This document shows positions 2,576-61,119 of a DNA stretch of 64,000 nt, piece after piece (position 1 is the first letter of the stretch; each line of letters opens with the position of its first letter). The notes beneath the pieces are model-generated. The model was not told the DNA's origin and did not search any database. It saw only the letters and a program-made list of their open reading frames with translations. The DNA lies in assembly GCA_021792095.1 (NCBI GenBank), contig JAJYVH010000001.1:317324-381323 (forward strand), given 5' to 3'. The stretch is from Candidatus Micrarchaeota archaeon. Its GTDB lineage: Archaea > Micrarchaeota > Micrarchaeia > Micrarchaeales > CABMGC01. Both the position numbers and the translations under genes were made by a program.

Positions 2576-2736
2576 AATTTCACGCGTGCCCTGTGGGTTT
2601 GTTATGGTATGCGCCTTTCGCCTTTTAAAGCATCCTGCTGTGCTTCGGGCCGGATCCAGATGCAAGCGCTAGGAGCGCAAGGTGTGTCCAAGCATATTAT
2701 AAAAAAACGTGTTCTGCGGGAGCAGAACCTGAAGCG

Positions 2737-2750
2737 CATCGCCCGAAGCA
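2737..2750 (+). repeat. att-like direct repeat, distal copy (CATCGCCCGAAGCA)
   Basis: Identical to 6655-6668. The extended alignment 2728-2750 vs 6646-6668 matches at 20/23 positions. Confidence 0.8.
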
Positions 2751-2894
2751 CAAGATGTGCGTGAGGCACATCTCCGACAAGAAGGATTTTTATACCGTCG
2801 ATTTTTAGCCTATTTTGGCATATAAGTGTGTATACCAGATATACATTCATTTAAATGAATTTACACGAGTGTATATCGTTTACATTCATGTATG

Positions 2895-3947
2895 TTATTT
2901 AAAGTATAGTGGGCGTGGGTGCTTGGGCGTGCGTGGTAGGTATGCGTATAGCACTATCGCACCCTTCTCAAGCCTTACGTTTATTCGTTTTATGGCATTT
3001 ACCTTTCCAGGAAGCTCGTTGTATATCTTGTTTCTAAGCGCCCTTGAAAAGGAATACTTGATGATGTCGTCGTCTTCGTAGCGCTCGGAGGTCTTCTTCA
3101 TTAAAGGTATTCTTTCCTTGTAGCTTATGCGTCCATTGGACTGCTTTAAGTTTAACACCTTCATGGCGTCTTTTGAGAGTTCCGCAGTATTTACACTGAT
3201 TTTTATTTTATGAGATGCAAGCTGAGGTTGTTTGAGAGGATGAGGCTTTCCATCCTTGAAGTTCATAAGTTTGTATTCAGTCTTCTTTTTGTTGTAGCTT
3301 GATCCCCAGTGCTCCAGTGACCAGATTGGCAGATGCTGGTCTAGCATGTATATCTTGCTCTTAATCCTGATTCCTGCTGCAACATGCCCAGGGGAGAAAG
3401 CAAAATATATCTCGTTCTTGACATACAGGTTTAAGAGCAGGCATGCTGTCAGCTTTGCATAATCTCTGCATACCCCTAGTTTATACTTTATAACCTTCTC
3501 AACAGGTAGGCTGGGCTGAAGGGAATACCAGACAAACCTGAATAATGTTACAACTTTGTTTTTATCTTCCAGGTTGAAGATATGCGTGTTCCATATTAGG
3601 AGCATGACGATTCCGATGAATGCTGACAAGAACATGCCAAATGTCAGGATAACTAGGTTCCTTATTAGATAGATATCTGCTGTTGAATAGATGGCAGGAT
3701 TAATCGGATGAAAAATTGTGAAGACAGCCCAGACGCAGAATATAAACAGGAACCCGAAGCTTATAATCAAAGACCAAGGAGCAAGGGGCCATCGCTCAGT
3801 CCAAAAGTATATGTTCTTGTCTTGCCACTCTAAAATATTAGTCAGTGTCTCTTTGTCTGAGTTACCTTTGAGCTTTTTGGCTAGGCGCATGACCTCCTTG
3901 TCCTTGAGTTCCTTTAAGGTTGGGTGATATCCAATATCCTTGTCCAT
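2895..3947 (-). CDS. transglutaminase-like (papain-fold Cys-His-Asp core) polytopic membrane protein
   Basis: 350-aa ORF in the AT-rich island. It has a central cluster of TM helices. GVCRDYAKLTACLLLN followed by PGHVAAGIRI resembles the transglutaminase-like core Cys and His. Confidence 0.55.
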   Translation of the reverse strand: MDKDIGYHPTLKELKDKEVMRLAKKLKGNSDKETLTNILEWQDKNIYFWTERWPLAPWSLIISFGFLFIFCVWAVFTIFHPINPAIYSTADIYLIRNLVILTFGMFLSAFIGIVMLLIWNTHIFNLEDKNKVVTLFRFVWYSLQPSLPVEKVIKYKLGVCRDYAKLTACLLLNLYVKNEIYFAFSPGHVAAGIRIKSKIYMLDQHLPIWSLEHWGSSYNKKKTEYKLMNFKDGKPHPLKQPQLASHKIKISVNTAELSKDAMKVLNLKQSNGRISYKERIPLMKKTSERYEDDDIIKYSFSRALRNKIYNELPGKVNAIKRINVRLEKGAIVLYAYLPRTPKHPRPLYFK

Positions 3948-4946
3948 TCATAACGCCCGTCTAATAAATTCGCATTTTTCTCCGAATACAGGATATCTAT
4001 CCATATCGACGAGGGTCTTTGAAATCTTACTAAACGATGTATCTATTTCTTTGTCCTTTTCTTTAATCTTACTAATTAAAGATTCGAGTTCTTTATTTTT
4101 GGCATTAGAAGGTTCCTTCTGTAAAGCCTCGAAGATCGCCGTATATTTCTCTGCCTTTTTCGGGTCGTTAGATATGGCTATCCCACCACTGAACGTGCCA
4201 TTATTTTTAGTTAAAGTGACTTGATATCCCTTTGCCATAGACTGAGTTTCTGGTATGCTCCAGTTCATTTCTTGAATTTTTATCTGTTGGCTCTTATCGA
4301 CGCCAGCCACATAACTAGAGAACAACGCATCAACAAACCAGAGATTTAATACATCTGTGCCTTTGTAGTTGTAATCGATTGTTGTTGACAGACCTGCTTT
4401 CTCGAGTTCTTTCATTGCAAGTTCTTCGATATACTTATGCAGGCCATTAAGCTGCTTCTCAAAATCGTTAACCGTTGTGCAGTAACTATTCCAGTCTCCT
4501 AACAGGTTTTTGTATTTCTCTCCTAGATGATTTTGTGTGAGGTCAGAGTATAGTATATCGTTATTGATATTTTCAGGAGCATACTGCGGTCTAGTAAAGT
4601 TTAATTCGTTTTTCTGGAACTGTGCGCCCATTAGCGGTATAATTTTATAATAAAACCCTTCATTTACACGTTTCCACTCGGCGATGAATTTATGCAGATC
4701 TTCAGAGTGCTTAATCTTAACATCCATAATCAAGGATTCGCTAGAGTAGTATATGCTGAAAGCCGCTATGATGAGCGCTGCCCAAGCAGGAATATCTGTG
4801 AACGGAATCAGACCTAGATACACAACTACTAGTAGTATGACAAAGGCGATAATGGCATAACTTATGTGTTTTGTTAAGAGTGTCATTGGTTTCTCACTTT
4901 TAAAGTAAAATGGTAGCCGCCATATTAATATGTGCACCCGAATCAT
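3948..4946 (-). CDS. hypothetical membrane-anchored protein (element cargo)
   Basis: 332-aa ORF with two N-terminal TM helices and a K/E-rich C-terminal coiled-coil-like tail. I recognise no family. Its ATG overlaps the PCNA stop (ATGA). An alternative start is at MTLLTK (4886). Confidence 0.5.
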   Translation of the reverse strand: MIRVHILIWRLPFYFKSEKPMTLLTKHISYAIIAFVILLVVVYLGLIPFTDIPAWAALIIAAFSIYYSSESLIMDVKIKHSEDLHKFIAEWKRVNEGFYYKIIPLMGAQFQKNELNFTRPQYAPENINNDILYSDLTQNHLGEKYKNLLGDWNSYCTTVNDFEKQLNGLHKYIEELAMKELEKAGLSTTIDYNYKGTDVLNLWFVDALFSSYVAGVDKSQQIKIQEMNWSIPETQSMAKGYQVTLTKNNGTFSGGIAISNDPKKAEKYTAIFEALQKEPSNAKNKELESLISKIKEKDKEIDTSFSKISKTLVDMDRYPVFGEKCEFIRRAL

Positions 4947-5700
4947 TCATCTTTGATGTATGGGGCTATGTAGTGTGCGAAGTCGACTCCGTCCATGTGA
5001 TAGCTGATTTTGAGGGGCTCTTTTGTAGTAAATTGGATGTTTACGGGCGTGTCCTTCTTCAGCACGGTGAGCATGCTTTCGATGAATCGGTGTTGTATCT
5101 AGAGGTTTGTTCCTGTGCGTCCGACTTCAGCTTTACCTCTATCCTATCGAATATCCTGCTGGACTCCTCTTCATCCCTTCCTATCGTTGTCAGCGTAAGA
5201 TTTTCCTTTGTTATTTGAAATGTTGTGTGTCCCTTTTTGCCTACCTTGATAAGTTCGTGGACGCTTTTCTGCAACAGCTTGCCATCAATCTCCGCTTCGG
5301 ACTTGAATGCAACACTCGGCTCCTTCTCCACATACCTTGTGACATTTTCTATTAGGACGCTGCCTACGTGTCCTCCGCATTTCAGATTTAATCTCCTTTT
5401 GCCGTCTTTTTCCAGCACGGTCGCAGTCAGTTCCTTGTCATTCGGCATACCTTCGATAAGCTTTGAAACCCTCTCCAAATCTATACCAAGCTCCTCAGGA
5501 CTGCCAAACCTGTACGAGATGAATTGCGCTTTTGGAATGCGAGCCACGATCATCGCTATTCCGCTTGACTCCATCTGCTTTATTTCGATGCCATTCATAT
5601 CGACCTTGATTAAGGCCTTCTTGTCCCTCCCATCATCTTTGAGGCTGACCGCTCCTTCGATCAGCTCCTTGAATGGCTGGGCGTTTATTACAAGGAACAC
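4943..5700 (-). pseudogene. PCNA-like DNA sliding clamp, interrupted by a 1-nt frameshift
   Basis: Frame A (5059-5700, GTG at 5698-5700) reads (M)FLVINAQPFKELIEGAVSLKDDG...IKVDMNGIEIKQMESSGIAMIVARIPKAQF...SRYNTD. A second frame (4943-~5086) reads FIESMLTVLKKDTPVNIQFTTKEPLKISYHMDGVDFAHYIAPYIKDE*. Together they match a full-length archaeal PCNA layout. Confidence 0.7.
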
Positions 5701-5713
5701 GGTGCCCGTATAA

Positions 5714-5787
5714 CTTATTCCATTCTCGGATTTTGAGGCTCTACTTATTCCATTTTGAGCAGGATTTTGGGCTGCGCTTATTCCATT
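5714..5787. repeat. three 11-bp direct repeats CTTATTCCATT (iteron/operator-like)
   Basis: Copies lie at 5714-5724, 5744-5754 and 5777-5787, spaced 30 and 33 bp apart. They sit between the integrase remnant and the PCNA GTG start. Confidence 0.7.
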
Positions 5788-5789
5788 TT

Positions 5790-6591
5790 TGGTAAGCTCG
5801 AAATAGCGGTTGGAGGTAGCTCCGTGGCCTATGACCCTAAGGAGCTTCCTTGCGGAGTCATCGGTCATAGGCTTATCCTTGCCCTTGCTACTGCCTATCT
5901 GCCTCTAGATTATCTGGTCGTCCCTTAAGTCCTTTATGGCATTCAGGTAGGTTACGGTCAGCGAGACTGACATAAGCAGCGGTACCTTCCTCCAGCCTGT
6001 CTTGCCCGTTATTGTGAGCTTCGCTGGCTGCACTGTCAGGTCTAAGTCTTTCTTCCTGACTCCCATTATCTCCCCTATCCTGCAGCCTGTTTCATATAAG
6101 AGGCTAAGGAAGAACTTGTCCCTGAGGTTTATGGCTGCGTCCAGCATCTTAACGATTTCCTGTTCCGTGAGTATGTTGTCTGGCATAAGGTTCTTTCTGG
6201 TTTTGTTCGTTATTTTCATCCAGGCTGTCACTGGGGGCTGATATACGCCCTCTCCCAACAGCTCCTTGTAGAAAACCTTCCAGACCGCCTGGAAATGGAG
6301 CCTGGATTCCATGCTATATGGCGGATCGCAGGAGTTTATGAACGCTGCGGCCTTTTCCATATCCCGTTTTGTTACCTCCTTTAGGTCTTTGTCATAACCT
6401 AGGGCCTCCATCAGCTTTAGAATGCCGTAAATATGCCGTATAACGCTACGTGGGTGCATATTCTTGGCCTTTAGCAGTGTTACGTGGTCTTCGATATAGC
6501 GCCTATTTTGCGCAATTATACGCACGTCAGCTAAAACCCTGTCATAGAGGCGGTTGGCCAGCCTTTGCCAATAGTCGATGTCGTTTGTCAT
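5790..6591 (-). pseudogene. tyrosine recombinase/integrase, decayed (in-frame TAG and missing catalytic region)
   Basis: ORF 5905-6591 carries the box I motif ETGCRIGEI and LTITGKTGWRKVPL, then stops at TAG. The same frame continues after 12 codons as ...DDSARKLLRVIGHGATSNRY, which resembles the LGH...Y C-terminal box. No HxxR box is present. Confidence 0.7.
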
Positions 6592-6654
6592 CGACGTGAC
6601 ATTGTGCCAGCGATGAATATTTATATCTTGTCCCGTAGGGGTCGTGCTTGAAGG

Positions 6655-6668
6655 CCATCGCCCGAAGC
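6655..6668 (+). repeat. att-like direct repeat, tRNA-proximal copy
   Basis: CATCGCCCGAAGCA. Positions 6658-6668 are the 3' end of tRNA-Asn. Confidence 0.8.
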
Positions 6669-6729
6669 AGGGATCGGACCTGCGACCTACTGGTTAACAG
6701 CCAGCCGCTCTACCGCTGAGCTATTCGGG
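6658..6729 (-). tRNA. tRNA-Asn(GTT)
   Basis: Manual cloverleaf: acceptor GCCCGAA/TTCGGGC, anticodon stem-loop GCTGG-CTGTTAA-CCAGT, T arm GCAGG-TCCGATC-CCTGC. No CCA is encoded. Confidence 0.9.
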
Positions 6730-6740
6730 CATGAAAAGGC

Positions 6741-21020: not shown

Positions 21021-21611
21021 GTGACGATGCCGCTTTTGGAATACCAGGTCGTGCTCGGCGCGATGGCCGCGTTCATAGGCCTGGCAGGCTATGCGCCCTA
21101 CCTGATTAACGTAGTCAGGAGGCAGACAAAGCCGCACGCGTTCTCCTGGCTGATCTGGGGCCTGCTGCAGTCAATAGTGTTCTTCGCCTCCACTAGCAAG
21201 GGAGGAGGGGCCGGCGCCTGGGCCATAGGCGCTCCGGCGGCCCTGAACCTGCTGATCTTCGCCATCGCGCTGTTCGTAGGGGAGAAGGAGATAACACGGA
21301 TGGACAAGGCCAGCCTGGCGCTCGCGTTCCTTGGAATGGCGCTGTGGGTCGCCACTACTGATCCTGTCTGGAGCGTGATAATACTCACCGGGGTCGACGT
21401 GCTCGGCCTAGTGCCGACCCTGAGGAAGGCCTACGCCAGGCCGGGGGAGGAGTCGATAAGCGTCTTTGCGTTCAGCGCAGTGTCGTTCTTCATTTCGCTG
21501 TTCGCGGTGCAGTCGGTGAGCCTGACCACGGTGCTGTACCCCAGCGCTGTGGCGATCGGCGCCACGGTGCTTGTGGTGATGGTGCTGGCGAGGAGGAGAA
21601 TGCTGTCGTGA
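21021..21611 (+). CDS. hypothetical polytopic membrane protein
   Basis: 196-aa ORF with about 6 hydrophobic helices. Its stop codon lies inside the putative target duplication of the adjacent insertion. Confidence 0.55.
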   Translation: MTMPLLEYQVVLGAMAAFIGLAGYAPYLINVVRRQTKPHAFSWLIWGLLQSIVFFASTSKGGGAGAWAIGAPAALNLLIFAIALFVGEKEITRMDKASLALAFLGMALWVATTDPVWSVIILTGVDVLGLVPTLRKAYARPGEESISVFAFSAVSFFISLFAVQSVSLTTVLYPSAVAIGATVLVVMVLARRRMLS

Positions 21612-21624
21612 GAAGCTTTGTAGT

Positions 21625-21936
21625 TTAAATACCTATAAAACTACAGGTTGAGGAATAAAAATACATCACGCACCGACCATTTGCTTGAAGGCTTCCCAAT
21701 AGGCTCGTTCTTCCGACGCTATCCATATAGTCCTCGTCAAGGTCTCCGTTGTCTTTCAGAGGAACATAGACTTTGGCTTTCTGGAAAGTCTCCTTGTAAC
21801 ATTGCCTGCCATAAGAGTATCTCCATTTAATCTCGTTGATTGCCGACTGCATAAACAGCAGGGTAGTGAGTTTGAACTGACGTTTGGGTATGCACATCAG
21901 CACATTGTCTGTGGCTATGAAGGAAGTTATCTGCAA
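21625..21936 (-). CDS. hypothetical protein (possible gene fragment; TTG start)
   Basis: 103-aa ORF inside the AT-rich insertion. The frame stays open upstream to the stop of the preceding ORF with no ATG. No confident family. Confidence 0.35.
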   Translation of the reverse strand: MQITSFIATDNVLMCIPKRQFKLTTLLFMQSAINEIKWRYSYGRQCYKETFQKAKVYVPLKDNGDLDEDYMDSVGRTSLLGSLQANGRCVMYFYSSTCSFIGI

Positions 21937-22002
21937 GAAGGCATCGCCACTAACAGTAGAAACAGTTATCGTAAGTTTTGGATAGACCTTTGCTCTGTCT
22001 CC

Positions 22003-22317
22003 CTAATCTTCAAATATCTCTCCCACCAGCTCATCTCTTGTCGTATTGTAGGGACTACTAAAAGTGCCATTAGAAGGGTCTTTTAGTGCTGGTTCTAAAA
22101 CAGGTCTATATTTTTTGAGACAGTGTTTGCAAAGATGGAGTTCAATATGCTGTCCGTCTGCAAAATGCATATCTGCAAACAAGCCGTTCTTTCCTTTGTG
22201 TTCATCAGGCCTTCCGCATAAAGAGCATTTGTAGGTTTTCTTGAGTATTCTATCATAGAGATTGATGCTTGTGCTACCTATAGTTAATGCACCAGCTATT
22301 TCCCCAAGCAGGCTCAT
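22003..22317 (-). CDS. hypothetical small zinc-ribbon-like protein
   Basis: 104 aa with CSLCGRP...HLCKHC (CxxC...CxxC). Lies inside the AT-rich insertion. Confidence 0.45.
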   Translation of the reverse strand: MSLLGEIAGALTIGSTSINLYDRILKKTYKCSLCGRPDEHKGKNGLFADMHFADGQHIELHLCKHCLKKYRPVLEPALKDPSNGTFSSPYNTTRDELVGEIFED

Positions 22318-22413
22318 AACAACCTAAAATAAAACTACACAAAGGCTAATAAAACTATAGAAAATCAATTAAACTACAAAGCCGTCGTTAGACATAGCTT
22401 TAAATAGTGGTGA

Positions 22414-22758
22414 ATGTCTAATTCCTCTGCAGTCTTTAAAGCTGCAGAGAAGTATGAAATGTCAGACGAAGATGAAACAGGCGGATATGGAAGAAGAGGC
22501 GGAGGAGACAGGGGAGACAGAGGAGAGAGAAGGGGCATGAACCCTAACTATTTCCTTCCCAAGCCCGTGAAGGTCGGGGATGTTCTGGAGGTTACCATAG
22601 AAGGGTCTGCTTCCAGGGGAGACGGCATAGCAAAGAAGGACGGTTTCGTCATCTTTGTGAAGGGCGCGAAGCCTGGCGACAAGCTGACAGTCAGGGTGAC
22701 TGATGTCAGGACAAGGTTCGCCATAGGAGAGCCCACAAGCGAAGCCCCGAGCGCCTAG
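22414..22758 (+). CDS. TRAM domain-containing (RNA-binding OB) protein with an acidic/RG-rich N-terminus
   Basis: KPVKVGDVLEVTIEGSASRGDGIAKKDGFVIFVKGAKPGDKLTVRVTDVRTRFAIGE. A possible alternative start is at 22459. Confidence 0.8.
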   Translation: MSNSSAVFKAAEKYEMSDEDETGGYGRRGGGDRGDRGERRGMNPNYFLPKPVKVGDVLEVTIEGSASRGDGIAKKDGFVIFVKGAKPGDKLTVRVTDVRTRFAIGEPTSEAPSA

Positions 22759-58829: not shown

Positions 58830-59414
58830 ATGGTCATGGAGGAAGATGAGCTGCTAAAGAAGTACAACACGCTCTACCTAGAGATACTGATGCGCTACAA
58901 GGATGAGATAGAGAAAGGCGAGACGCTCTACGTCGCGGAGCTGCCCAAGCTCGTCACGCCCCAGGACGAGTCCGTGCTCGCCGTTGTGAACAACATAAAG
59001 AGCAGCTTCGCCGCTTATTCGTTAGATGACAACTTCTACGACGCCGCTATGAAGGCCCAAGCCTACATCAACACCTCGGTGTCCGGCATCTCGGTCCCGG
59101 TGCAGTTCTGGCTTACGCCCAGCGAGGTCATAAGGATGGGGGCCGGCGACGTCTTCGACAAGACGGTGCTGTTGTGCAGCATTCTGATAGGCCTCGGCAA
59201 CCTCACGGCAAGGATAGTCACCGTAGTGAAGGGGTCGGGCAGCGAATCGGCAGTGTACTGCGAGTTCCACAGCAAGCTGCTGCTCCTCAGGGCCGACGGC
59301 CGGATGGGCGAGTTCGACGGGAAGCAGGGGCTGCTGGCTGCAATGGGCTTCTCAGACGACCCCGGCACTACTGCCTACGAGTTCAACGACAAGATGTACA
59401 GCAGCATTGCCTGA
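58830..59414 (+). CDS. hypothetical protein (transglutaminase-like fold lacking the catalytic Cys); its 3' end is remodelled by a cassette insertion
   Basis: Internal ATG of ORF 58488-59414. GAGDVFDKTVLLCSILIGLGN resembles a transglutaminase core with Cys replaced by Val/Phe. An ancestral-looking C-terminus copy lies at 60014-60057. Confidence 0.5.
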   Translation: MVMEEDELLKKYNTLYLEILMRYKDEIEKGETLYVAELPKLVTPQDESVLAVVNNIKSSFAAYSLDDNFYDAAMKAQAYINTSVSGISVPVQFWLTPSEVIRMGAGDVFDKTVLLCSILIGLGNLTARIVTVVKGSGSESAVYCEFHSKLLLLRADGRMGEFDGKQGLLAAMGFSDDPGTTAYEFNDKMYSSIA

Positions 59415-59506
59415 AGGAACTATAATCATATTATGTACATAAATGATACACAAATGAAACATATTTAAATCACCCTACTGTAATGTAATAGCAATGGTGA
59501 GATTTA

Positions 59507-59749
59507 GTGAACGTTAATCTAAGGGGCAGAGCCAGGCAGATCCTTGAGGTAATGGTCAAAGAGGGGTATGCCAACACAAGATCAGAGGCCGTAAGACTTG
59601 CAATAATTAATTTTGGAGACAAACATGCTGAAGACCTCTTGGTGGAGAAGAAACTCGATAAGATTGACGCACTGATAAAAGGAGGGAAAAGGAAGCTATT
59701 GGATTCTCATGATGCTCTGGGTGAATACGCTAAATATCTCAAGGGATAG
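59507..59749 (+). CDS. ribbon-helix-helix (CopG/ParD-like) antitoxin
   Basis: 80 aa with a GTG start. VNLRGRARQILEVMVKEGYANTRSEAVRLAIINF shows the RHH pattern. Confidence 0.6.
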   Translation: MNVNLRGRARQILEVMVKEGYANTRSEAVRLAIINFGDKHAEDLLVEKKLDKIDALIKGGKRKLLDSHDALGEYAKYLKG

Positions 59750-59751
59750 GT

Positions 59752-60009
59752 ACGTACACCGCAGAGTTCGACCAAGGATGGCCAGAGTATTTTCAGTCGT
59801 TAGACAAAGGTATCAGAGCAAGAATCGCGAAGAAAATAGAGAAGATCCTGATGCATCCTGAAAAGAGGCATCTGATGAGGAGCTCGTTCTTCGTTGACGA
59901 AGTAGGGCAGTACAGACTCGTTTACAGGATCTTCGAAGAAAATAAAGTCAGGTTCTATTTTGTCGGGGCTCATAAAGAGTATGAGAAGTGGTACAAGCAA
60001 GGATTCTGA
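59752..60009 (+). CDS. RelE/ParE-family toxin (no canonical start; ACG at the Met position)
   Basis: Not in the ORF track. My translation: (ACG)YTAEFDQGWPEYFQSLDKGIRARIAKKIEKILMHPEKRHLMRSSFFVDEVGQYRLVYRIFEENKVRFYFVGAHKEYEKWYKQGF*. It begins 2 nt after the antitoxin stop. Confidence 0.6.
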   Translation, partial: TYTAEFDQGWPEYFQSLDKGIRARIAKKIEKILMHPEKRHLMRSSFFVDEVGQYRLVYRIFEENKVRFYFVGAHKEYEKWYKQGF

Positions 60010-60060
60010 CACCTTGATGTACGAGTTCAACGACAAGATGTACGGCAGCCTGGCGTAGCT

Positions 60061-61119
60061 CTAGACCCAGGAGCTCATTCCTTTCTGCCCCGCTGCAGAC
60101 CTGTATCCTACCAGCATGTCTGCGAACTTCGCGACCCTTTCCTTGGAGAAGCCGTGCTCCGTGCACATGAACCTGAGGAGCGCCTCCCTGTCTGGCTTTG
60201 CGTCCTTGAGCAGCGAGTTGAACTCGCCCTGCTCCATCTCCCTCACTTCGGGGTTCAGGAAAATTGACTCTATCTCCTCGGGGTCCGCCTCGAACGATGC
60301 GCCGTACTTGGCTTCCGCAGCGCTCACCACTTCCTGCAGGCTGCTCTTGTCCCTGACCAGCTTCAGCGCTGTCTTGGCCCCAACGCCAGGCACGCCTTCG
60401 TTGAAGTCTGTGCCGACGAGCATGCCGAGCCACACCAGCTGCTCGTGCGTTATGCCCAGGCCGGAGAGCAGCCTCTTCAGCTCTATGCGCTCCGGGCGTA
60501 TTTCTACGAACACGTTCTTCCTGGGCAGCTTGCGCCTGCCCGTTATCGTAAGGTTCCTCACCGCTATCGGCGAACCGAACAGGAAAAGGTCGTAGTCCTG
60601 GCTGGCGCTCGCATAGACGCGGCCGTCCGCAGCCAGCCTGGACGCCTGGGCCTCGCCCTCGCTGGGCGCCTGTATGTGCGCTATGCCCATAAGGTCCAGC
60701 AGCCTCTTCGAGCTCTCCACTATCTCCTTGTTTATCCTTGTGCTGGCCATGGCGTGCTGCCTCGCCTCCTCCAGCATGCCCTTCTTCAGCGCCTCGCTCC
60801 ACTCCTTTGCCGCCTCCTCGCGCCTCCGGACCCTGGCCTCTATTGTGCGCTGCTTGAGCGCTGGCGGCATGCCGTCGAATACGAAGACGGGCGTTATCTT
60901 GTGCTCGAGGAGGCTCGCGGTGCGGTAGAACAGGCCAGACAGGTGGCTGGTTGTGGCGCCGTTCTGGTCCCTGAGCGGCATGCCGTCCGGCCCCCTTATT
61001 ATCGACAGGAACTGGTAGATTGTGTTGTAAGCGTCGACAGCGATGATCCTGTTCGACAGCTGGTCGAGCGATATCTCCTCCTTGGCTCCTGCGACAAGGG
61101 GCCCGAGCTCTACGGCCAC
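60061..61119 (-). CDS. fen: flap endonuclease 1 (FEN-1)
   Basis: IAVDAYNTIYQFLSIIRG...TSHLSGLFYRT...PVFVFDG and H3TH GVPGVGAKTALKLV. Confidence 0.95.
   Translation of the reverse strand: MAVELGPLVAGAKEEISLDQLSNRIIAVDAYNTIYQFLSIIRGPDGMPLRDQNGATTSHLSGLFYRTASLLEHKITPVFVFDGMPPALKQRTIEARVRRREEAAKEWSEALKKGMLEEARQHAMASTRINKEIVESSKRLLDLMGIAHIQAPSEGEAQASRLAADGRVYASASQDYDLFLFGSPIAVRNLTITGRRKLPRKNVFVEIRPERIELKRLLSGLGITHEQLVWLGMLVGTDFNEGVPGVGAKTALKLVRDKSSLQEVVSAAEAKYGASFEADPEEIESIFLNPEVREMEQGEFNSLLKDAKPDREALLRFMCTEHGFSKERVAKFADMLVGYRSAAGQKGMSSWV

Follow-up and report, generated by a model that had tools for sequence, protein, structure and literature searches.

The DNA analysed here is a 64-kb stretch of contig JAJYVH010000001.1 from Candidatus Micrarchaeota archaeon (GenBank assembly GCA_021792095.1, positions 317,324 to 381,323 of the forward strand), the whole of which is referred to as the window. 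It holds a toxin-antitoxin (TA) cassette between the 3' end of a conserved protein-coding gene, designated gene X, and the convergent flap endonuclease gene fen. The cassette is bracketed by two direct copies of the end of gene X, and comparison with orthologous loci indicates that the TA pair was inserted at this gene end as a discrete piece of foreign DNA. The features of the locus are listed in Table 1.

Table 1. Features of the cassette locus, with positions in the window
Feature	Position	Strand	Description
Gene X (target)	58830..59414	+	194 aa; weakly CEP76-peptidase/transglutaminase-like
Direct repeat copy 1 (attL-like)	59376..59414	+	24-nt invariant core 59376-59399, 12-nt tail AGCAGCATTGCC, stop TGA
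Cassette left arm	59415..59506	+	AT-rich leader, TATA-like box ACATATTTAAATCA at 59459-59472, GGTGA motif just before the GTG start
Antitoxin gene	59507..59749	+	80 aa, GTG start; putative ribbon-helix-helix DNA-binding protein
RelE-like toxin gene	59746..60009	+	~86 codons, stop TGA 60007-60009; N-terminus without ATG/GTG/TTG
Cassette right arm	60010..60019	+	10 nt (CACCTTGATG) from toxin stop to repeat copy 2
Direct repeat copy 2 (attR-like)	60020..60058	+	same 24-nt core, tail GGCAGCCTGGCG, stop TAG 60056-60058; non-genic
fen, flap endonuclease (right flank)	60061..61119	-	352 aa; Pfam XPG_N and XPG_I; convergent; syntenic in relatives

Structure of the locus

The 24-mer TACGAGTTCAACGACAAGATGTAC was found exactly twice in the window, at 59376-59399 and 60020-60043, as an initial annotation made from the window alone had reported. 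One hundred dinucleotide-preserving shuffles gave no such pair, even with three mismatches allowed, and a chance repeat was ruled out on this basis. A repeat search extended the pair to 35 nt (32/35 identical); the earlier count of 29/30 after a 6-nt extension was correct. Compared through both stop codons (59376-59414 versus 60020-60058) the copies are identical at 33 of 39 positions, with no mismatch in the first 24 nt and six in the last 15 (9/15 identical). Copy 1 supplies the C-terminus of gene X, ...YEFNDKMYSSIA, up to the stop codon, and the open reading frame (ORF) drawn at 58830-59414 in the initial annotation was recovered with its 194 codons. Copy 2 could encode (M)YEFNDKMYGSLA followed by a stop codon. 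Its TAG had been placed at 60055-57, 3 nt from the fen stop; it in fact occupies 60056-60058 and is separated by 2 nt from the fen stop (CTA, 60061-63).

The start-to-start spacing of the two copies is 644 bp, and the DNA between them is AT-rich, as had been described, and 605 bp long rather than the ~620 bp first given. A G+C profile, which the initial annotation had proposed as a check, fell from about 0.60 to 0.39-0.46 across 59400-60000; the cassette as a whole has a G+C content of 0.44, against 0.58-0.62 in its surroundings. The ORFs between the copies include no recombinase, in agreement with the initial annotation. The same arrangement recurred in at least 10 contigs that were assembled independently and come from several samples, and an assembly artefact was therefore ruled out. 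These contigs of the population are identical, with neither polymorphism nor an empty allele among them, and 6.6 kb around the locus recurs without differences in ENA contig ERZ27236928:k141_1249296.

Gene X and orthologous loci

Gene X matched Pfam PF24656 with E=1.9e-5, under the cut-off. It is conserved across the Micrarchaeota (145 homologs) with a nearly invariant C-terminal YEFNDKMY, and its 24-nt terminal codon string is conserved phylum-wide, synonymous sites included. The locus is syntenic in 76 genomes. The cassette is absent and the gene end single at 75 of these 76 orthologous loci, and a second terminal copy of the gene X end was found at none of the 76. In the sister genomes L001 and L079, whose fen product is 89% identical to that of the window, synteny is complete and gene X ends in ...SSIA, followed by 19 nt and the fen stop. 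In L002 the gene ends in ...SSIV with a TAG, followed by 2 nt and the fen stop. Neither arrangement includes the cassette, and the closest syntenic relatives thus bear out the claim of the initial annotation that a cassette was inserted at the 3' end of a gene. Two observations named there as counting against insertion were orthologs that always carry the cassette without the repeat and a copy 2 that forms part of a conserved small ORF; the former state was seen in L008 alone (1/76), and copy 2 does not belong to a conserved small ORF.

A different gene occupies the same junction in three other genomes. In L078 a 282-aa gene with an HELLH (HExxH) motif lies on the minus strand at 803-1651, between X and fen, and it is found likewise in L004 and L007. 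In L078 its G+C content is about 0.44, against 0.55-0.60 in the flanks, and no flanking repeat was seen around it at the junction. Because L078, L004 and L007 hold a different gene there, the X/fen junction is apparently a hotspot at which foreign or dispensable DNA is found.

Within gene X itself a weaker copy of the terminal motif, CEFHSKLLLL, was found at 59259-59293, about 37 codons upstream of YEFNDKMY. Some orthologs have YYEFNNRIYV as their version of the internal motif (L047 at 1256, L049 at 3604 and L050 at 1949), which suggests an internal structural repeat of the protein.

Genes and promoter of the cassette

The TA genes are small, adjacent and co-oriented, with the antitoxin first (80 and ~86 aa), as is typical of type II systems. 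Among 64 related cassettes, 56 have a ATATTTAAAT-type box 38-45 nt upstream of the antitoxin start and 53 have a GGTG-type motif at the antitoxin start codon; the unit therefore brings its own promoter. The TATA-like box recognised in the initial annotation, ACATATTTAAATCA, is the window's version of this conserved box.

The toxin of the window matched two Pfam families just under their curated cut-offs, ParE_toxin with E=3.6e-4 and 21.5 bits (cut-off 23) and HigB_toxin with E=8.2e-4 and 20 bits (cut-off 27). A profile of the toxin family matched Escherichia coli RelE with E=2.6e-4 over positions 2-78 of 86, and weakly HigB as well, and homologs of the toxin carry precomputed PF05016 or PF09907 annotations. 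The earlier description of the toxin as RelE-like was upheld by the profile match. The first protein fits an antitoxin in size and position; its ribbon-helix-helix fold, named in the initial annotation, is putative. The window protein had no Pfam match and no sequence match in the PDB; among 23 antitoxin homologs Pfam RHH_1 was marginal (3/23 members, best E=0.021), and one source (JGI) names it an Arc/MetJ-type ribbon-helix-helix regulator. An AlphaFold2 monomer model was all-helical with a predicted local distance difference test score of 84, and its best Foldseek neighbour was the ParD-type antitoxin PrpA, a weak match (E=2.6, template modelling score 0.37). The 23 antitoxin homologs always occur paired with the toxin, and the pair is fixed in 71 of 82 loci.

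The two genes meet at AAGGGATAG in the window and at AAGTGA in relatives, where the toxin GTG start overlaps the antitoxin stop. Among 71 cassettes compared, those of the window (59743-59752), L008 (4908-4917) and L088 read AAGGGATA(G/A) at this junction. A single T-to-G change converts the toxin GTG start to GGG and gives the antitoxin one additional Gly. Because the canonical start codon is lost, gene callers skip or truncate the toxin of the window. Relative to L008, the ratio of nonsynonymous to synonymous substitution rates was 0.10 for the toxin overall, 0.16 for the 34 codons upstream of its first ATG, and 0.20 for the antitoxin. These ratios indicate that both genes are under purifying selection between the window and L008. 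The toxin ORF is intact, and, given this selection despite loss of the start, translation of the toxin probably persists, with the ATA at 59746 and the ACG at 59752 as candidate non-canonical starts and reinitiation after the TAG as a further candidate. We infer toxicity and addiction for the pair, with purifying selection as indirect evidence.

Distribution of the family and its bracketing repeats

The initial annotation had recommended a search for other copies of the cassette, which yielded a whole family. Relatives of the antitoxin were found at 72 metagenomic loci and on further contigs, for at least 75 cassette copies in all, in Micrarchaeota and in other DPANN-labelled archaea. Contexts of the members are unrelated to one another and include the interval between Archease and RtcB genes and positions after a GmrSD gene and after a hydrolase gene, among others.

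Repeats were sought between two stretches at each locus, the 300 nt that precede the antitoxin start and the 160 nt that follow the toxin stop, so that larger forms were outside the reach of the scan. A direct repeat scored 12 or more at 15 of 58 loci, and an inverted one at none of the 58. After loci with similar flanks were collapsed, 13 of 49 independent sites scored at least 12 and 9 of 49 at least 16; none of 290 between-locus control pairs reached 12 (maximum 11). The bracketing repeats are 12-65 nt long, and their sequences vary between sites. They enclose the unit closely, with 60-130 nt separating the left copy from the antitoxin start and 4-83 nt separating the toxin stop from the right copy. 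Among them are those of L094 (~65 nt, imperfect), L125 (45 nt, 43/45 identical), L108 (44 nt), L162 (33 nt, perfect), L115 (25 nt), L083 (21 nt, perfect), L112 (17 nt) and L116 and L117 (16 nt each). Near-perfect repeats are found at loci other than the window.

Some repeats share smaller motifs. The copies of L108 (198-241 and 887-930, with about 25 nt beyond each) include the right arm GAACCGAAC...TGCTGAA and a tRNA-Val-like core, CCGCGGGCCCA, although there is no tRNA; beyond each copy are additional GAACTC(W)GA...CTGCT motifs, which may represent tandem accretion or arm-type binding sites. In three AT-rich hosts the repeats (L083 2410-2430, L101 1922-1933 and L121 1901-1915) have a common GGGATTTA(T/A)AA motif, in opposite orientation in L121, which may be a common intergenic target or a regulatory motif. 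L088 was dropped as a second gene-end case; the translation of its upstream "ORF" was of low complexity and non-genic.

Attachment-like targets

Where a target could be recognised (window, L116, L117, L162 and L115), a tRNA or protein gene has its 3' end within one repeat copy and remains intact. The repeat of the window comprises the last 12 codons and the stop codon of gene X. The left copies of L116 and L117 consist of the last 11 nt of tRNA-Val(CAC) and tRNA-Val(TAC), respectively, followed by TTCCT. In L162 the 33-nt repeat comprises the last 30 nt of tRNA-Pro(CGG) and 3 nt beyond, and in L115 it spans the last three codons, the stop codon and 13 nt downstream of a 378-aa gene ending in ...TCIG. 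The initial annotation had likened the geometry of the window to that of tRNA-type integrative elements, and the family members found in the ends of tRNA-Val(CAC), tRNA-Val(TAC) and tRNA-Pro(CGG), with repeats of 16-33 nt, strengthen that comparison. Archaeal elements with tyrosine integrases have attachment (att) sites of 29-69 bp in tRNA genes, in the 3'-distal parts of protein genes and in intergenic DNA (PMC6563490). The repeats of the cassettes look like att sites because their lengths and targets match those of such elements.

Related cassettes were found at related targets. L116 and L117 are 91% identical at the nucleotide level, with nearly identical left arms, right arms homologous at about 60% and unrelated flanks. 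Empty tRNA-Val(CAC) genes (L017, L020 and L074) terminate identically, and the next 5 nt are TCTGT, CATAG or GACTG. TTCCT, which is also in the right copies of both L116 and L117, therefore does not belong to the target in general, and the comparison indicates that the core of the L116 and L117 repeats is defined by the element. In L160, a relative of L162, the cassette lies 110 nt after tRNA-Pro(TGG). The cassette of L147 is 76% identical in nucleotide sequence to that of L115 and follows a homolog of the L115 target gene that is 31% identical in amino acid sequence and also ends in ...TCIG.

Because the target is kept in distant hosts by four lineages, namely those of gene X, the gene ending in ...TCIG, tRNA-Val and tRNA-Pro, the choice of target is inherited with the cassette. 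These four lineages, together with the absence of TTCCT at empty sites, are indirect indications of an attachment site carried by the element itself (attP). Empty sites are available both for gene X (L001/L079, L002 and 70+ other loci) and for tRNA-Val(CAC) (the three genes above).

The same slot in L008

The only other cassette among the 76 orthologous loci lies between X and fen in L008, where its G+C content is 0.41 against 0.51-0.54 in the surroundings. Amino acid identity between L008 and the window is 55% for X, 70% for fen and 71% for an aminoacyl-tRNA synthetase; for the cassette it is 76% (antitoxin) and 78% (toxin). At the nucleotide level the TA coding regions are 81-82% identical and fen 71%. 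The two cassettes are homologous up to the toxin stop, beginning some 25 nt downstream of the X stop. Because the cassette is more conserved than its housekeeping flanks, the comparison points to lateral movement into the same slot. No second copy of the gene end was found in L008; GCGTAA before the fen stop is a candidate remnant of copy 2, too short to judge.

Origin of the two repeat copies

The initial annotation took copy 2 for the ancestral gene end and predicted that relatives lacking the cassette would end in ...GSLA. That prediction failed, and the ancestry of copy 2 is not established: the four closest cassette-free relatives end in ...SSIA (L001 and L079), ...NSIA (L078) and ...SSIV (L002), all resembling copy 1. 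The copy 1 tail is one mismatch away from those of L001, L079, L078 and L007; the copy 2 tail is four or five away.

Exactness of the 24-mer was rejected as a sign of recent duplication. The string is identical in orthologs of 55-80% protein identity, and because it occurs in 23 of 76 scored orthologous gene ends, 21 of them outside the population of the window, it is uninformative on age. The distribution of mismatches (0/24 versus 6/15) had a hypergeometric p of ~0.0015, or ~0.03 if only the core of copy 2 was free to change. Clustering in the last 15 nt is unlike decay, and for this reason suggests two gene ends of different origin with a core that is invariant across lineages, rather than duplication followed by decay.

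On the native tail the evidence conflicts. A crossover in the core predicts that copy 2 is native, and its TAG and 2-nt junction with fen match the native geometry of L002. In L001 the 19-nt spacer between X and fen (4580-4598, identical in L079) reads ctatGCAGCCTGcattggg and contains an 8-mer of the copy 2 tail, GCAGCCTG (p ~0.004-0.006, uncorrected for post hoc choice); the spacer could be the scar of a lost second copy, in which case the sister lineage would once have had the cassette. For a foreign origin speaks the similarity of the copy 2 tail to L006 (1/12 mismatches) and then to L011, both of which belong to a four-member clade containing L008, the other cassette-bearing genome. A recombination tract was looked for near the junction, and the 3' parts of X and of fen revealed none.

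Integrases and low-G+C islands

No integrase is encoded between the repeats of the window, and the annotation of 2.5 kb on either side of six other copies shows none; the cassette thus lacks the integrase of its own that is characteristic of site-specific integrative elements. A collection of viral and mobile genetic element (MGE) contigs was scanned with two patterns for a circular or tandem junction, and neither was present. The viral contigs also contained no relative of the antitoxin family, and an origin from a phage or plasmid received no support from these scans.

Two other regions of low G+C content lie in the window. The first, of about 3.9 kb (2730-6669, minimum G+C 0.36), is bordered by the two copies of a 21-nt direct repeat (2730-2750 and 6649-6669, 19/21 identical), the right one of which overlaps the 3' end of tRNA-Asn(GTT) (6658-6731, minus strand). 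It contains a truncated tyrosine integrase at 5908-6591 (Phage_integrase, reduced to an N-terminal portion of the catalytic domain), together with a PCNA-like protein, an unknown protein of 332 aa and a DUF553 transglutaminase-like protein, and looks like a decaying integrated plasmid or provirus. On the strength of this repeat and the truncated Phage_integrase, integration of the integrase type operates in the genome of the window. The truncated gene is the only integrase-family ORF in the low-G+C islands examined. As a helper for the cassette it found no support: it is truncated, its att site is different, and it has no homolog beside other cassette copies, although the regular-expression screen of the flanks for tyrosine recombinases was crude and provides weak evidence. 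The second island (21551-22650, minimum G+C 0.37) has two minus-strand ORFs of 103 and 104 aa, one of them CxxC-rich, and a weak direct repeat of 29 nt, with copies at 21635 and 22329 (72%); possibly it is a further small insert of foreign origin.

Mode of insertion

The reading that we favour, with a probability of roughly 0.55, is that the 644-bp unit is a non-autonomous mini integrative element without integrase, flanked by att sites in the manner of a cis-mobilizable element (CIME), which enters through one crossover and is moved by functions supplied in trans. Each cassette lineage would carry, across the junction of a circular form, a short copy of a conserved target, which is either the 3' end of a tRNA or the final, invariant codons of a protein gene. 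Entry into the chromosome would take place by one reciprocal crossover within the stretch of identity (Campbell-type, attP x attB), which would duplicate the target as attL and attR and keep the target gene intact. Because the cassette encodes no recombinase, the crossover would be made in trans, most likely by the tyrosine integrase of a co-resident element and less likely by host recombination. Addiction by the TA pair would then guard the insert from loss. The junction of an excised circle would read CACCTTGATG, the 24-nt core, either tail and AGGAACTATAATC, and a precise empty site would read through the core, tail and stop of X directly into CTAGACCCA. We infer the circular intermediate, the crossover and the identity of the enzyme; a trans-acting integrase and homologous recombination, both of which the initial annotation had put forward, are the leading candidates.

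Several observations weigh against this mode of insertion. About three quarters of the sites have no close repeat within the reach of the scan, among them L008, which shares the site of the window. The window and L008 differ in the tail and in the first ~25 nt of the left arm, where a common attP predicts sharing. A crossover in the core predicts an element-derived copy 1 tail, yet that tail resembles the clade of the window itself. This mode does not account for the many att specificities within one TA family, and the ends of the cassette are not fixed relative to the conserved promoter and have no junction motif, which is a poor fit to a dedicated site-specific enzyme. No integrase of matching specificity was found, the sole one in the window being truncated and served by another att site. 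The viral/MGE collection, moreover, contained neither a circular nor a tandem junction.

Long repeats may also be formed without any att site or integrase. In an insertion like those of restriction-modification (RM) units, ligation into a staggered double-strand break and fill-in of the overhangs would produce a long, variable target duplication in which both copies derive from the target. The repeats here are long and variable (12-65 nt) and site-specific in sequence, there are no mobility genes, inverted terminal repeats or fixed cassette ends, and RM units, another addiction module, provide a precedent (PMC2853133; PMC2875022). Non-specific breakage, however, predicts no inherited targets, and tRNA-Val, tRNA-Pro, gene X and the gene ending in ...TCIG were each used twice; L116 and L117 share a 16-nt repeat of which 5 nt are not conserved downstream of empty tRNA-Val genes; and the six differences between the window copies all lie in the last 15 of 39 nt, with each copy resembling the gene end of a different clade. 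We consider such a duplication unlikely. Decay in place of a larger element is, in our estimate, improbable to a similar degree. An integrase-bearing plasmid or provirus at the end of X would have lost everything except the TA pair, loss of which is counter-selected, so that the cassette would be an immobile, dead CIME. Bacterial CIMEs arise in this way (PMC5704250), DPANN genomes are streamlined, the window has a decaying tRNA-Asn island with a truncated integrase, the X/fen site is a hotspot (the 282-aa gene of L078, L004 and L007), and larger forms would have been missed by the repeat scan. However, decay that ran its course separately at 13 or more unrelated sites is not expected to stop each time at one compact unit (from promoter to stop codon, with arms of 4-130 nt), nor to leave near-identical left arms and homologous right arms beside different tRNA-Val genes with unrelated flanks (L116 and L117), nor the same minimal cassette, more conserved than fen, at the same site in the window and L008.

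The structure may instead have arisen only once, in another Micrarchaeon, and have reached the window lineage by homologous recombination in X and fen, or it may be ancient and have been lost from L001, L002 and L078. On either account the genome of the window would itself have undergone no insertion. The affinity of the copy 2 tail to L006 and then L011, of the clade of L008, fits such a history, as do the 8-mer in the L001 spacer and the union in L002 of a copy-1-like tail with the TAG and 2-nt junction of copy 2, and L001 and L002 could both carry deletion scars. The divergence of the cassette between the window and L008 (~19% of nucleotides) is, moreover, similar to or greater than that of fen between the window and L001 (15%). 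This history is nevertheless very unlikely: X and fen show no recombination tract in their 3' parts, and the G+C content of the cassette is still about 15 points under that of its flanks. It would also account only for the history of the locus and not for the first formation of the repeat-flanked structure, and in that sense complements the other models. It is quite unlikely, although less so than allelic transfer, that the TA pairs are a distinct class of minimal selfish integrators, each with no more than a promoter, an addiction module and a short mimic of a conserved tRNA or gene 3' end. Integration and excision would then use machinery that is neither encoded by the element nor a dedicated partner integrase, for example host XerA or RadA or even an activity of the TA proteins. 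If true, this would be the general route for the spread of bare TA modules through DPANN genomes.

Comparison with known mobile units

The mini integrative element proposed here most resembles the CIMEs of Firmicutes, which retain att sites at both ends but no longer have genes for integration or transfer (reviewed in PMC5704250). As in these, attL and attR are kept as repeats that include the 3' end of the target, integration and transfer genes are absent, and the recombinase is presumed to come from another element. The cassette differs in its size of only 0.64 kb, in consisting of the TA pair alone, in its archaeal (DPANN) hosts and in the many att-like repeats used for the same cargo. The repeat scan, covering 300 and 160 nt around the cassette, found no parental element with the same att site. 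That the minimal form of the cassette itself moves is implied by closely related copies whose tRNA genes differ and whose flanks are unrelated.

The known integrated elements of archaea are of kilobase scale, and the cassette is far smaller. With tyrosine-integrase elements of the SSV and pNOB8 types and the integrated MGEs of Thaumarchaeota (PMC6563490) it shares repeats of tens of bp and an intact target; it differs in having no integrase within or adjoining it and in ends that are not fixed relative to the cargo.

RM units of bacteria are flanked by target duplications of 46-47 bp and longer over gene 3' ends and tRNAs, without another mobile element and by a mechanism that is unknown (PMC2853133; PMC2875022). 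Like the cassette, they are addiction modules with no linked mobility gene, long site-specific repeats and a G+C content under that of the host (PMC2853133). Both RM copies match the empty site, whereas the targets of the cassette are lineage-specific and the window copies differ distally. The published screen for RM units flanked by repeats yielded bacterial cases, no archaeal case survived it, and the term "toxin-antitoxin" is absent from the report (PMC2853133).

Two further classes of small mobile unit were ruled out. The cassette resembles miniature inverted-repeat transposable elements (MITEs) and other non-autonomous transposons in being small, dispersed and flanked by direct repeats. 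Its repeats, at 12-65 nt, are longer and more variable than target duplications made by transposases and lie at tRNA and gene 3' ends, and there are no terminal inverted repeats and no conserved junction motif. Integron cassettes, such as those of the Vibrio superintegron, are likewise small and promoter-proximal, often carry TA pairs and depend for their movement on a recombinase whose gene lies elsewhere. The present unit has no attC-like imperfect palindrome, no IntI/attI platform and no array, and its flanking repeats copy the local target; its right arms of 4-83 nt (10 nt in the window) are mostly too short for attC.

Implications

The horizontal mobility of type II TA operons has been called remarkable in a survey that mentions neither flanking repeats nor integrons (PMC2701414). 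Our literature search, for TA pairs and for DPANN archaea, found no earlier description of bare TA pairs flanked by att sites. The integrative-element geometry proposed for a bare TA module in the initial annotation is supported by the sequence comparisons and generalised by them to a family. In this family a two-gene unit with its own promoter is the unit of insertion, leaving att-like scars at the 3' ends of tRNA and protein genes and keeping its target across distant hosts. Inserts of this kind replace or duplicate the C-terminal ends of conserved proteins, give rise to small ORFs that go unannotated and to toxins overlooked by gene callers, and mark integration hotspots in the poorly known genomes of DPANN archaea. 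The question of how bare TA modules move is thereby made testable, as to which recombinase acts and whether there is a circular intermediate.

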